A stretch of DNA of 41,602 bases, from contig JAZQAZ010000005.1 of NCBI GenBank assembly GCA_045545475.1, positions 1 through 41,602 on the forward strand, in the 5' to 3' direction. Under the pieces are notes generated by a model, which saw nothing but the letters and a program-made list of their open reading frames with translations, did no database searches and was not told where the DNA came from. Made by a program: the position numbers and the translations under genes. The stretch comes from Clostridia bacterium (lineage in GTDB: Bacteria; Bacillota; Clostridia; CAKSNL01; HGM11501). The first letter of the stretch is position 1. Each line of letters begins with the position of its first letter. Positions 26,037 through 31,917 of this stretch are shown here, piece by piece.

Positions 26037-29000
26037 ATGAAACGTCGTCTGTCGGTGAATGATAAAATCACATTAAGCTCTGGCGAAAAACAGACTGAAT
26101 TTATAATAGATGAAGTTATTGGCGGTGGCGGAAGCTGTATCGCATATAAAGTTTCATATATGGAAAACGGGGATATAATACATAAGGGCATCCTTAAGGA
26201 ATTTTATCCCACATTTTTAATAAACGGTGATACGCTTCCTCGTTTTGATGCGAATATTTGTATTCCTCCCGAACATGCAGAAAGATTTAATGCCGAACTG
26301 GAGAACTTCAAAAACACATATCGTGTTATAAACGAATACCTCTCTGATAATTTATCCGCATCAAACTATCATACTGTACAAATGGGGTTTTATACGGGAA
26401 ATAACACGGCCTACACGCTTACCTCATGTGATTACGGCAAAAGTTATGATAAAATAACAGACAAAGATGCCTATTCCCTTTTTAAAATTATGCTGGCTGT
26501 GACTAAGGCGGTTGAACTTTATCATAAGGCCGGATTTCTGCATTTGGATATAAAACCGAAAAATATACTTGTTCTTGATGAAGTAACGGATATTGTTAAA
26601 CTGTTTGATTTTGACAGTTTGATTCCTCTTGAAAACTTTAAAGAAAGAAAAGTTTACCAGGTACCCACTCCCGGAGAATATTATGTACCGGAACTTAGCA
26701 ATTGCCAGTTAAGAAATATAGGACTTCATACGGATATATTTGAGATTGGTGCCATGTTGTTTGGAAGACTGTTTGGAAGATATCCGGAATCCGGAGACAT
26801 GAAATATGACAGCAAGTATCCATTAGATGAATCCGCGCTTCTGTCCACAGCTTCACCTCAAGTGCTGTACGAAATAGAAGTTCTTTTCAGAAAAACTCTT
26901 CAGATTTCAAAGCATTTGCGATATCAGAACATAGCAGAATTAAAAGAACAGATTAAAAAAATTGTCAATTTAATCGGTAAAGACGTTCCCTATTTAATTG
27001 ATATGCCGAGATGGCAGCCGACTAAAAAATTTGTCGGCAGAAAAAATGATATAGCTTTAATTGACGCTCATCTTCAAAAAGATGGCTATGTTTTCGTAAA
27101 AGGTATCGGGGGATTGGGAAAATCAGAATTGGCGAAATATTACATCAATGAAAAAAAGGAGAAGTATCACACAATTCAATTTTGTAAATATGACAGCAAT
27201 TTAAAAGCTTTGGTAGCATCCATGGCTGTAAATGGAGTAAACGATAAAGAATTTACAAATTTTGATGAACTTGTACGCCATAAAAACAAAATTCTGCATA
27301 CATGTGATGAGCATACACTTATAGTTGTTGACAACTTTAATGTTACTCACGATAAGTTCTTGAGAGAATTTCTTCCCTCGGATAATAAATCTTTTAAAGT
27401 TATCTTTACAACAAGATGTAACATGGCTGTCGATTATTATTCGGATAAAATCATTCATCTTCCTAAGCTTTCGATGGAAGAGTGTAAAAGGTTATTTATT
27501 CTGCATGCAAATTGTAACTCATCTGACGAGAATATTGAAGCTATAATAGAAACAGTAGACTATAATACCTTGGTTATTGTTCTTCTGGCTGAAACCATGC
27601 GAAAATCTAAAAAAACACCGGGCGAAATCCTGGATTTGCTTCGCAATCAGGAACTGGAACAGGAGCATACAATGATTTTCCACGAATACGATTATTCCGA
27701 GGAGGAAATTGAAGAATACAATAAAATCAATTCCCACCTTAAGGTGATTTTCGATATTGGTAAAATGTCTTATGCGGAAAAAATTTTGCTTAAAAACATG
27801 TCCCTTGTTTCCCAGAAAGGTATAGCAATCGAAGATTTTATACAGTATTGCGATACAGATGATTTTACCCAGGAGATGATTATGGAAATAGCTGATCTCG
27901 GATGGCTGGACTATAGAGACGGACAGGTATTCATGCACCCGATTATTTCTGATCTTCTATCTGAGAATAAAGAAATTGCTCCCGGCGACAGTTACTATAA
28001 CCTGGCTGATAATCTTGAGGATTTGTGCGAACCCGATTATGTGAGCCATATTTCCGTGGTTATGAATAAGGTTTCTACGGCTATGCATTTGGAAAGACGC
28101 TACAAGGAAGAGAATATAGAAAGAAAAATTATTATTGAAGCCAAACTGGGAAGATTATACGCAAATATATATAATCCAAAGCAGGCAAAAGAATCTTTAA
28201 AGAAAGCAATTGATTTTGCTACAGAGTACAGAAAGACGGAATTTTTACCATACATCTATGGTTATGCAGGTACAGTGGAAAAGGATTTCGGCACAATACC
28301 CGAAGCCATCCATTTTTATGAAAAGGCTGTTTCTGAAGGCAAAAAAGCCGGAAGTGAGGACTATGAGTCAGTGCTGGAGGCGATGATTGGCATAGGAGAA
28401 TGTTTTGCCGAAAACGGAGAATTAATTAAAGCAAAAACATCCTATGATGAAGCCCTGCACTTTGCTAAGCAACATGCTTTTGACACATATATATACAACA
28501 TTGCTTGTGAACTGTCTAATATCAGTGAACAGCTGGAATTGCCTGATGAAGCTGAGAACTATAAATTAATAATGACAAAATACGAAAAGTATGCCGAAGA
28601 ATACATCCCAAAGGAAATAAACGAAATAGAAAAATTTACTGAAGATTACGATTTCGTTTCAGGACAGGAAAAATTTGAAGTTTTTCTTGAGGAAAAACGA
28701 TATGAGCTTGGTGAGGACTCGCCTATTTATCAAGATATAGCTCGTAACCGTTGGATTTTTTATGCTTTAAATAACGATTATGAACAAGCAAAAAGACTTG
28801 CGGCACAAAATTTATCGTTTACAGAGGAAAAGTTCGGAGCCGAGTCAATGGAAATGGCAGAACAGCTAACTCTTATTGCCGGGATATTTCCTAAACTGCT
28901 GGAATTTGATTATGCAGTTGCCTCTGCTAAAAGGGCAATTGCTATTTGTGACAAGCTTAATCAGCACAACACCAAAATAGCTCTAAATGCAAAGCTTGCG

Positions 29001-30468: not shown

Positions 30469-31917
30469 ATGTCTAAAACATTTAACGACGATTTTACCAA
30501 AATACTGATTTCAAAGATGAATGATTTTGAGGAACTGATCTACAATATAGAGGATAAGATAGCTTCTTTGGAAGACAATGAAGAAGTAATTGTTAATTAT
30601 TTAAAAGATATAAGATGCTCTATGCCGATGGGATTGGCTTTAAGAAGATATCTGTGCGGAAAGTTCAGCGACGGATACGATAAATTTTCAGAATTTGTAT
30701 CTTTTACTCTGGATGACGGAAGAAAGATAACAGTGAAAAACTATAATTCCGAGCAATATGATATTACAGCAGATGATGTTAAAGAGTATACTGATATTTG
30801 CATTTATATAAACGAAAAGTACAATACAAACTCTGAAGGTATAGTTGAACTTGACAGTATTACAAAAGCGGAATTTCGCAGGATGTTGCGTTCTACAACA
30901 ACTTGTTTGCGTAATAAAATGTTTCTCCTAAGCTTTGCACTTCACATGGACGTAGAAGATATGACGAAATTCCTTACGGATGTGTTGGCGGAACAGTCAT
31001 ATAATTATAGAAATCCGGATGAGATAATTGCTTATTTTTGTCACTTTCATGAAGATTATAATAATTACGCAGAATATAAAAGAATTAAAAATGAATATTT
31101 AAATCGTGCCGAAGCAAATGCATCCGAAAGCGAAAATGAAGAACGTGAAAACTACACGTGGTACGCAAAAATTGCAATGACGGTTCAGGTAACAAGCGAA
31201 GAAGAATTATATCAGTTCTTGCTTTCTAACAGTTCTAACTTTAAGGGATATTCAAAAACGGCATACAACGAGTTTATGAGTTTGTATTCATCTGCGTTAG
31301 AAAAAAGTGAAAGACAAAGCTTATCCAATGATGAATATGTTGTGTATTCTGAAATGAACACGCAAGAGCAGGTAAAAAAACACGAAGAGAGACTTGATAA
31401 AGCTATCTTGCTGCAAAAAGTAAGTAACACGGAGCAGCTTGCAAAAAGAATGCTTCAATTTATACCGCGTGCAACTACAGAAAAAATTAAAAGTGACGGC
31501 AAAAAGATAATTACTAACGATTTTATTTCCATACATAACGGTGAATCCGGTCAAAACAGCAAGAAAGAGCAAACAACAATTCTTCCGAAAGAAATTACAA
31601 TGAATCTTTTGATGAAGGACAGACTTGATGACCTGATAATGCAAAAAAAGCCTGTTGAAAGAAAGGACCTGGTGTTTTTAAAATTTTATCTCCTTTCGTT
31701 GGATTTGCAAAAAAAGGGCGACTATTCTGCTTTGGATTACAGAGTTTTTATGGATGAGTGTAATGAAATGTTGGTAAGATGCGGGATGTCAAAACTGTAT
31801 CCTGCAAACAGATTTGAAAATCTCATATTAATATCTCTTGTTTCTTCAAACCCGTTTGAGATGTTTGAAAGCATAATAGAAGCTTCTTTCATTAAGGAAC
31901 CTGAGGCGGAAGAATAA
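30469..31917 (+). CDS. Hypothetical protein with two degenerate XRE-HTH-like modules
   Basis: RNKMFLLSFALHMDVEDMTKFL..YRNPDEIIAYFC and RKDLVFL..CNEMLVRCGMSKLYPANRFENLI look like two copies of one helical module; directly follows the kinase gene. Confidence 0.55.
   Translation: MSKTFNDDFTKILISKMNDFEELIYNIEDKIASLEDNEEVIVNYLKDIRCSMPMGLALRRYLCGKFSDGYDKFSEFVSFTLDDGRKITVKNYNSEQYDITADDVKEYTDICIYINEKYNTNSEGIVELDSITKAEFRRMLRSTTTCLRNKMFLLSFALHMDVEDMTKFLTDVLAEQSYNYRNPDEIIAYFCHFHEDYNNYAEYKRIKNEYLNRAEANASESENEERENYTWYAKIAMTVQVTSEEELYQFLLSNSSNFKGYSKTAYNEFMSLYSSALEKSERQSLSNDEYVVYSEMNTQEQVKKHEERLDKAILLQKVSNTEQLAKRMLQFIPRATTEKIKSDGKKIITNDFISIHNGESGQNSKKEQTTILPKEITMNLLMKDRLDDLIMQKKPVERKDLVFLKFYLLSLDLQKKGDYSALDYRVFMDECNEMLVRCGMSKLYPANRFENLILISLVSSNPFEMFESIIEASFIKEPEAEE

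Follow-up and report, generated by a model that had tools for sequence, protein, structure and literature searches.

The window considered here is the whole of a 41.6-kb contig (41,602 nucleotides; C5, JAZQAZ010000005.1 in assembly GCA_045545475.1) from the 2.74-Mb, 95% complete genome of a Clostridia bacterium. It encodes, side by side, a 1469-aa protein in which a Hanks-type kinase domain is fused to an NB-ARC module of the STAND type and to a long region of tetratricopeptide repeats (TPR), and a 482-aa protein that belongs to an undescribed superfamily. The pair is best read, with a confidence that stays a little below an even chance, as a reversible phospho-switch carried by a conjugative or mobilisable element, in which the 482-aa protein would be the cognate target and output of the kinase. 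The domain make-up, the conservation of the motifs, the linkage of the genes and the recurrent neighbourhood of kinase, phosphatase and FHA genes are direct observations; the functions proposed for them are deduced from sequence, structural models and gene neighbourhoods.

The kinase-STAND-TPR protein and its linked partner gene

The kinase domain of the 1469-aa protein is recognised by the Pfam family Pkinase at residues 130–257 (E 9e-13, 48.6 bits against a cut-off of 31.7), which places it among the Hanks-type kinases, and its sequence matches in the PDB are PknB and eukaryotic kinases (E ~1e-7). The nucleotide-binding oligomerisation domain (NOD) that follows matches NB-ARC at residues 350–544 (E 2.5e-8, 33.9 bits against 23.5), which assigns the protein to the STAND NTPases, and this NB-ARC part also gives a partial match to the NCBIfam family FxSxx_TPR (residues 329–541). 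The remainder of the protein is matched by TPR_12 in four stretches (E 5.8e-28) and by further TPR families from about residue 690 to about residue 1300; TPR_MalT remains just below its cut-off (44.5 bits against 45), while the NCBIfam match to AfsR in the TPR region is faint (E 0.0097) and far under the cut-off. In nucleotide positions, the kinase covers approximately 26037–26996, the NOD 27024–27986 and the TPR region 28104–30443. No hydrophobic or membrane-like segment was found along the 1469 residues (maximum KD19 1.52).

Kinases are generally recognised by the Gly-loop and by the HxD, DFG and APE motifs, and STAND proteins by the Walker motifs, the sensor-1 Arg and the MHD motif. The translation contains HLDIKPKN at residues 169–176 and DFD at 191–193 in the kinase, and GIGGLGKS at 356–363, LIVVD at 428–432, TTR at 458–460 and MHP at 633–635 in the STAND module. 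In an alignment of the window copy with ten full-length homologues from other genomes (n = 11), the invariant residues of the kinase (11/11) are G29, G31, K54, H169, D171, K173, N176, D191, D193 and Y215–E219, and those of the NTPase are G358–S363, D432, T458–R460 and H634; the subdomain-IX sequence TDIFEIGAM and the YYVPE sequence are likewise invariant in all eleven. The beta-3 lysine is K54, K38 being variable among the homologues. The HRD motif reads HLD, which makes the enzyme a non-RD kinase, and DFG reads DFD, the second residue being F or Y across the homologues. Since these motifs are invariant in all eleven proteins, they are under selection and not due to chance. The intact catalytic loop, the STAND module with its two Walker motifs, TTR and MHP, and the long TPR region had all been pointed out in a preliminary description of this DNA, and each of them is borne out by the family matches and the alignment. 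Compared pairwise, the homologues have a mean identity of 0.54 in the kinase and 0.51 in the NOD, against 0.34 in the TPR region, which is the most variable part. As judged from sequence, the kinase looks active and appears to be controlled by a STAND module whose repeat sensor is variable.

The two genes are tightly linked. One genome per species was scanned for the 482-aa protein, which gave 13 loci outside the window, and in 13/13 of them a kinase-STAND homologue lies directly upstream of the partner gene on the same strand, with a gap of at most 62 nt or with an overlap between the genes. Ten of these upstream homologues are full length (1459–1565 aa, 38–49% identity), one has only 840 aa and lacks most of the TPR region, and two are ended by the contig edge. 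The conservation of the pair extends what had been described for the window itself, where the open reading frames (ORFs) at 26037–30446 and 30469–31917 and the spacer of 22 nt between them were confirmed exactly. Further downstream, homologues of the 154-aa protein are found in 11 of the 13 loci (directly after the partner), of the JAB/JAMM metalloprotease-like protein in 7, of the 130-aa ORF in 5, of the 80-aa protein in 4 (61–71% identical) and of the 182-aa ORF in 1, several of the 13 contigs ending within a few kb. The 13 loci are spread over several different Clostridia lineages; the partner was found in 0/13 other genomes of the order and in 0/398 other genomes sampled from the class, and on these counts the pair is rare and patchy.

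In the window, a new transcription unit probably starts at the promoter-like site at 25861–25889, since a strong terminator-like hairpin (25508–25544) lies upstream of it. This promoter-like site and the first strong terminator-like hairpin that follows, at 33194–33235, both pattern matches, delimit a predicted unit composed of the kinase-STAND gene and the genes for the 482-aa, 154-aa, JAB and 80-aa proteins. The translation of the JAB protein contains the metal-binding motif HSHP...SDGD and, by analogy with the ImmA-type proteases, one may speculate that it processes the partner protein.

Fused kinase-NOD genes are scarce in the class sample, occurring at 4 places in 3/399 genomes, and 2 of these places adjoin a partner-family gene. 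The genome studied here encodes a second kinase-STAND-TPR protein of 1050 aa on another contig (C47, ~84.6–87.8 kb; locus L017, 6620–9772, minus strand), which is 27% identical to the 1469-aa protein over kinase and NOD and whose neighbours are glycoside-hydrolase genes (GH109-like) and ChW-repeat genes. An orthologue-like gene of this second protein is present in one genome of the same genus (G006).

Phospho-signalling genes beside the partner superfamily

The association with kinases is also seen in distant relatives of the partner. Two more members of the partner family, both full length, were recovered from the class sample with the profile. One of them (L024) lies immediately before the gene of a 1239-aa kinase and AAA_16 protein, which is 26% identical to the 1469-aa protein over kinase and NOD; the other (L023) lies immediately after the gene of a 652-aa kinase and LRR_5 protein, among glycoside-hydrolase genes. 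A metagenome scan with a clade of ~400-aa proteins, 18–26% identical to the 482-aa protein, retrieved 80 loci, which fall into 38 clusters when grouped at 80% identity. A kinase is adjacent in 9 of the 21 clusters in which both neighbours are visible and lies within two genes in 14 of the 21; the background rate is 4 kinases in 152 ORFs located three or more genes away. The kinase counts, as well as those of the PP2C phosphatases, were obtained on mechanically called ORFs of at least 100 aa with hidden Markov models built for this analysis, the kinase model from the kinases found in it; they are floors because many of the metagenome contigs are short, and the related sequences that they include are not independent.

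All the predicted partner kinases sent to Pfam (7/7) are members of Pkinase (E 1e-31 to 1e-44), and their C-termini carry LRR, Sel1, a Zn-ribbon or nothing. In the repeat-bearing ones, a hydrophobic segment is located directly after the kinase domain, and for this reason they look like receptor kinases. Since the kinase is the sole domain common to all partners, it is to this domain that the family is functionally tied. A PP2C gene occurs within two genes in 8 of the 38 clusters and was confirmed by Pfam in L044, L076 and L088; one of these three confirmed genes is fused to an LlaJI-like restriction-endonuclease domain. In addition, a transporter gene of the 2xFHA-ABC type (L029 26–2380) is directly upstream of a partner-like gene. 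According to these domain assignments, the common denominator of the neighbourhoods is a kinase domain together with readers and erasers of phospho-Ser/Thr. A gene string made up of kinase, partner-like protein, PP2C and ClpB-like AAA protein is repeated in many gut-metagenome contigs. Together with the PP2C fusion and the FHA transporter, this string is one of the unusual arrangements seen at L088 8151–10172, L076 8133–10566 and L029 26–2380.

The window has its own phosphatase, encoded 3.7 kb downstream of the 482-aa gene. Its translation contains the metal-binding motifs DLHG, GDVIDRG, GNHE, HGG and GH, which place it in the PPP family, and it is matched by the lambda phosphatase structure 1g5b in the PDB (1.1e-8) and by Metallophos (9.4e-15, 56 bits against 21.5). 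The presence of a dedicated phosphatase suggests a reversible switch.

The preliminary description inferred that the 1469-aa protein is an immune receptor. An Avs-like receptor acting by abortive infection would bind a phage protein through the TPR region and oligomerise through the NOD, and its kinase would then mass-phosphorylate host or phage proteins, the 482-aa protein being an accessory or a target; the staphylococcal kinase Stk2 is reported to stop infection by such mass phosphorylation. The tripartite NLR-like layout with an active-looking N-terminal enzyme is consistent with this explanation, as are a sensor that evolves faster than the kinase and the NOD, a sporadic and mobile-element-borne distribution, and the HerA-like ATPase, the two dynamin-like GTPases and the WYL regulator encoded just upstream in the window; in particular, the kinase matches the PADLOC kinase models of PD-T4-6, MkoA and mad6 (E 8e-15 to 1e-4). 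However, no Avs/NLR model is present among the 25 listed of the 27 matches of the 1469-aa protein in PADLOC-DB 2.0.0, a library without the Avs families published later than 2023; of these 25, 24 are confined to the kinase (residues 84–321) and one is a TPR-repeat model. The upstream WYL, dynamin and HerA genes lie beside the pair in 0/13 other loci, and the family also occurs with receptor-type kinases (LRR/Sel1) and PP2C without any STAND module, which looks like ordinary signalling. Moreover, scans of IMG/VR with the alignments of the family and of the distant clade (A1, A4) gave no confirmed member of either, and searches by term in the main text of a 2026 survey of STAND proteins, its supplements aside, revealed no protein-kinase effector (PMC13581612). 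The phospho-switch is favoured over defence because of the lack of an Avs/NLR model among the PADLOC matches listed, the unconserved defence neighbours, the signalling cassettes and the dedicated phosphatase. An Avs-like receptor is held to be unlikely, and the immune role first assigned to the protein finds no support in any of the tests.

The partner protein as putative output

The 482-aa protein has no match in Pfam, NCBIfam, PHROG or PADLOC. It has 234 near-length homologues, the few named ones being called 'hypothetical protein', and its family profile, when searched exhaustively with HMMER, defines a superfamily that comprises 973 clusters at E ≤ 1e-3 and 351 at E ≤ 1e-10. Forty diverse members of this superfamily have no Pfam family in common, and a helix-turn-helix (HTH) family is found in 0/40. 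The PDB profile search with the partner alignment gave chance-level rows alone (E ≥ 0.12), and the longer family members P0142 and P0265 have no sequence match in the PDB; with P0002 or A4 as queries no longer relatives were found, a weak indication that fused forms do not exist. The plasmid collection contains no match to the partner, and the phage collection a single one, of 25.5% identity, in an unannotated record of 4.2 kb.

Two HTH-like modules and a putative role in DNA binding had been attributed to this protein at the outset, and what stands of both is a weak structural lead. The full-length AlphaFold2 model has a predicted local distance difference test (pLDDT) score of 70.3 with low-confidence segments at residues 1–50 and 283–380, while the N-domain alone, modelled from an alignment of 50 sequences, reaches a pLDDT of 90.3 and a predicted template-modelling score (pTM) of 0.83. 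In VIA-align, residues ~50–176 are superimposed on whole XRE/lambda-repressor-type domains (Z 3.5–5.7, 63–80 residues, root-mean-square deviation ~3–3.7 Å), including those of CI, SinR, DdrO, C-proteins, ImmR, CapH and Stl and the HTH domains of ComR, Rgg and PrgX. A beta insert of ~40 residues splits this XRE-like N-domain, and a second, weaker set of matches at residues 259–440 has the Stl repressor of SaPI as the best one (7p4a, Z 6.0). In the ESM Atlas, the nearest named cluster (score 0.86) has HTH_26 in 16% of its members, which is a further lead. The models therefore give a lead to an XRE-like fold with a beta insert and to a putative DNA-binding function. An internal repeat relating the N half to the C half was sought by hhalign and rejected (probability <1%, E 0.08 and 0.15); as this result is not significant, the two modules of the preliminary description cannot be called a repeat.

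Some features of the 482-aa protein are of interest for phosphorylation. Residue 10 is Thr in 50/50 superfamily members and position 370 is Ser or Thr in 92%, and both are located in segments of low pLDDT; on the basis of sequence conservation and model, Thr10 and Ser/Thr370 are candidate phospho-acceptor sites. The mean pairwise identity of the partner (0.56) is higher than that of any region of the kinase-STAND protein (0.34–0.54). These data are to be weighed also with respect to a different role, in which the 482-aa protein would not be the substrate but a regulator or adaptor of the kinase, i.e. an activator, a pseudosubstrate inhibitor or a scaffold, the real targets being elsewhere. Such a role would agree with a conserved link to the kinase domain whatever the sensor, with the stronger conservation of the partner, with the weakness of the evidence for DNA binding, and with family surfaces that are strongly conserved and carry no known catalytic or HTH signature. 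On the other hand, conserved Thr10 and Ser/Thr370 in flexible segments fit a phospho-acceptor, the neighbouring FHA and phosphatase genes imply a phosphoprotein that is read and erased locally, and XRE-like folds dominate the matches of the structural search. A role as regulator or adaptor is held to be unlikely.

In the phospho-switch, the variable TPR region of a cytoplasmic NLR-like protein would bind a ligand, most likely a protein or a peptide, and the NB-ARC module would exchange its nucleotide and oligomerise, as STAND proteins do. Oligomerisation would gather the N-terminal Hanks-type kinase domains, which would in this way be switched on and phosphorylate the co-transcribed 482-aa protein, the likely sites being Thr10 and Thr369/Thr370. 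The latter, as the output, would most likely alter the transcription of the co-directional genes of the element, by a putative binding to DNA; the genes proposed to be under its control are the JAB-protease operon and the unit of the coupling protein. The lambda-type phosphatase would reset the switch.

Several observations weigh against this reading. On the side of the kinase, no conserved alpha-C Glu, the residue expected to pair with the beta-3 Lys, is assignable from the alignment between K54 and H169. With regard to the coupling of kinase and partner, the second kinase-STAND gene of the genome, on C47, has no partner-family gene beside it, and apart from the 482-aa gene none was found in that genome; 7 of the 21 metagenome clusters with both neighbours visible show no kinase within two genes; and the pairwise identities of kinase-STAND protein and partner over 11 loci are poorly correlated (Spearman 0.15–0.25), a low value that gives no mirror-tree sign of co-evolution. 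The phosphatase is present in just 5/13 loci and the coupling protein in 1/13, several of these contigs ending early. As for DNA binding, VIA-align Z values of no more than 6.0 can reflect a common helical arrangement; Foldseek against the PDB returned nothing at E ≤ 1e-3 for either the full-length or the N-domain model; no HTH profile (HTH_3, HTH_26 and related ones) of Pfam or NCBIfam matches the 482-aa protein at E ≤ 0.01; and the would-be recognition helix, KMFLLSFALHM, is mostly hydrophobic. With respect to the initial proposal of a phospho-signalling protein that acts on its neighbour and controls rather than kills, the linkage in 13/13 loci, the active-looking kinase, the occurrence of the superfamily beside kinases, PP2C and FHA genes and the phosphatase of the window all fit.

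Mobile-element setting and comparison with known systems

The features of the window are collected in Table 1. Positions 1–14800 carry housekeeping genes (a sugar kinase, a thioredoxin-reductase-like protein, a ferritin and others), which are followed by a candidate defence-like cluster on the minus strand. In this cluster the HerA-like ATPase has 1097 aa (PADLOC HerA 1.3e-21, mad8 2.5e-19) and the dynamin-family GTPases have 763 and 481 aa, the latter with partial matches to the PADLOC models LeoA and LeoBC (3e-11 and 1.9e-7, respectively). From ~25 kb the GC content drops to 0.31–0.39, the GC skew becomes steadily positive and nearly all ORFs are directed rightward; the kinase-STAND gene and the 482-aa gene are at the head of this low-GC block. 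Between the defence-like cluster and the mobile block there is an isolated small unit (25065–25544).

Table 1. Positions of genes and signals in the 41,602-nt window
Feature	Position	Strand	Remarks
tRNA-Thr (GGT)	150–225	−	near the contig start, distant from the mobile block
Candidate defence-like cluster	14981–24702	−	HerA-like ATPase, 208-aa ORF, two dynamin-family GTPases, WYL-HTH regulator
Promoter-like site	25065–25094		12/12 consensus matches; followed by a 124-aa ORF without family match
Terminator-like hairpin	25508–25544	−	minus-strand match; 16 pairs, strong; pattern scan
Promoter-like site TTGACT-17-TATAAT with TG extension	25861–25889	+	~150 nt 5' of the kinase gene; 11/12; pattern match only
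1469-aa kinase-STAND-TPR protein	26037–30446	+	Pfam Pkinase, NB-ARC and TPR families
Spacer, 22 nt	30447–30468	+	GGGAGG ribosome-binding site 8 nt before ATG; no terminator-like site
482-aa partner protein	30469–31917	+	member of an undescribed superfamily
154-aa conserved protein	32015–32479	+	same predicted operon; without family match
JAB/JAMM metalloprotease-like protein, 144 aa	32509–32943	+	Pfam Prok-JAB, E 1.3e-5, 25.5 bits against a cut-off of 25
Cys-rich protein, 80 aa	32944–33186	+	final gene of the predicted operon
Terminator-like hairpin	33194–33235	+	18 pairs, T tail; first strong one after the promoter at 25861–25889
130-aa ORF	33314–33706	+	small, before the coupling protein; without family match
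182-aa ORF	33627–34175	+	small, before the coupling protein; without family match
VirD4/TraG-type coupling protein, 497 aa	34162–35655	+	T4SS-DNA_transf 3.4e-40 (138.7 bits), TraG-D_C 1.9e-24 (86.4 bits)
Lambda-type (PPP family) Ser/Thr phosphatase, 264 aa	35652–36446	+	PHROG 246, NinI-like, 3.8e-40

The mobile nature of the block is indicated by the coupling protein, which sits in the same co-directional array as the pair. Both Pfam profiles score over their cut-offs in the 497-aa ORF, which assigns it to the VirD4/TraG family; the plasmid proteins that match it best carry the annotation 'VirD4-like conjugal transfer protein, CD1115 family' and, in total, 425 plasmid records match it, 301 of which are typed as conjugative. 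Close relatives were found, in a class-level search, in the genome of the window only. Neither an oriT nor a relaxase was located in the window. In the 4–5 genomes with related loci, no AAA_10 (VirB4-like), relaxase or serine-recombinase family adjoins the pair, with the exception of two loci: L002 has a coupling protein inside the locus, and L009 a coupling-protein-like gene and a relaxase fragment ~22–30 kb upstream on the contig. The element is therefore honestly labelled, on its gene content, as conjugative or mobilisable and seen incompletely, since no relaxase, VirB4-type ATPase or integrase lies beside the pair and the contig stops at 41602. Variable cargo is inserted between the conserved genes of related elements (L001 8994–9842, L009 13388–17639, L011 12592–14844); it includes an ADP-ribosylglycohydrolase, a SprT-like protease with membrane segments and a peptidoglycan-binding C39-like peptidase, together with a guanylate-kinase-domain protein and a 750-aa Zn-ribbon protein. 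ArdC-like (ArdC-N/M78) genes are present in the distant analogue locus L024.

This setting also raises the case of a module for host takeover or anti-defence, located in an early-entering region, in which the kinase, the phosphatase and the JAB protein, with the ADP-ribosylglycohydrolase of related loci and SprT/ArdC-like proteins, would rewrite the protein modifications of the recipient at establishment. The co-directional array with a strong positive GC skew from ~25 to ~38 kb would suit such a region, the phosphatase and the JAB protease are erasers of modifications, and ADP-ribosylglycohydrolase, SprT-like and ArdC-N/M78 genes occur near the pair or in its distant analogue. Nevertheless, an early effector that acts constitutively would be oddly built as a 1469-aa ligand-gated STAND sensor, members of the partner family accompany kinases also in apparently chromosomal, non-mobile contexts (L023), and a 'leading region' is unproven, as the window revealed no oriT or relaxase; a takeover module is regarded as very unlikely.

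The reversible phospho-switch may be part of a wider picture, which is possible but doubtful. In this picture, the 482-aa protein would found a family of about a thousand clusters (at 50% identity), mostly of gut Clostridia, acting as the dedicated cytoplasmic output of Hanks-type receptor kinases, as response regulators do for histidine kinases, each encoded next to its cognate kinase, a cognate phosphatase and, in some cases, an FHA reader. The window would hold the version in which NB-ARC and TPR replace the extracellular LRR/Sel1 sensor and in which the kinase phosphorylates a transcription factor that decides the behaviour of the conjugative element, i.e. transfer or host immunity. To our knowledge, few bacterial Hanks kinases have a cognate substrate to which they are genetically linked, and pleiotropy is the usual description of these enzymes. 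If the picture is correct, gut Clostridia would offer a tractable 'two-component-like' Ser/Thr system, with a family that travels with kinases whatever the sensor, and about a thousand clusters of hypothetical proteins would receive their first function. The STAND version would add a kinase to the outputs of the bacterial NLR-like proteins, on a transmissible element, where horizontal gene transfer or defence might be made to depend on a signal inside the cell.

Fusions of kinase and STAND modules have been textbook knowledge ever since the definition of the STAND family. The case that has been studied, PknK of M. tuberculosis, is described as a STAND kinase and cytoplasmic signal transducer (PMC4381067) that phosphorylates the transcription regulator VirS (PMC9045387). 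From these descriptions, it shares with the 1469-aa protein an N-terminal Hanks kinase, a STAND NTPase and a helical-repeat sensor, and it has a transcription regulator as substrate. The comparison is by description only, and differences emerge: here the NOD scores as NB-ARC, with TPR_MalT just under its cut-off, and the gene belongs to a mobile element of Clostridium, its putative target being an operon partner of an undescribed family and not an AraC-type regulator. Avs and bNACHT proteins have the same layout of effector, NOD and repeat sensor, a fast-evolving sensor and a sporadic, mobile distribution; in contrast, the effector here is a protein kinase, a second gene is conserved by synteny, and no Avs/NLR model occurs among the PADLOC matches listed (25 of 27).

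Other systems resemble single parts of the pair. Stk2 of Staphylococcus epidermidis is reportedly an anti-phage Hanks kinase and the output of an infection sensor, and it is not known to have a STAND module, a dedicated partner or a phosphatase of its own; compared by description only, it is similar in the use of a Hanks kinase as output of a sensor and different from the present protein, which has a STAND module and a partner. In the AfsK-AfsR system of Streptomyces, a Hanks kinase phosphorylates an NB-ARC-TPR STAND transcription factor. AfsR is thus a DNA-binding STAND substrate of a separate kinase, whereas in the present pair kinase and STAND module form one protein and the putative DNA-binding part is another. 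ImmR, ImmA and RapI of ICEBs1 are an XRE-type regulator, a metalloprotease and a TPR sensor that head the transfer genes of the element. A similar module is described in TnSmu1, and the DNA-binding domain of ImmR is among the structural matches of the 482-aa protein (7t8i_B, Z 4.0–4.1). The protease here is instead of the JAB and not of the M78 type, the sensor is a kinase-STAND fusion and, by analogy, phosphorylation would be the signal rather than proteolysis or before it.

As regards kinases in conflict systems, S/T/Y kinases are described as effectors of other NTPase-centred systems (Kaur et al. 2020, PMC7159879); most of these are actinobacterial and in most the catalytic residues are disrupted, whereas the kinase considered here is intact. 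In the literature, the supplements of the STAND survey (PMC13581612) being outside the scope, no description was found of the partner family or of a conjugative element that carries a kinase-STAND pair. The fusion of kinase and STAND module is an architecture known from PknK; the partner family, its family-wide tie to Hanks kinases and the mobile setting appear to be new.

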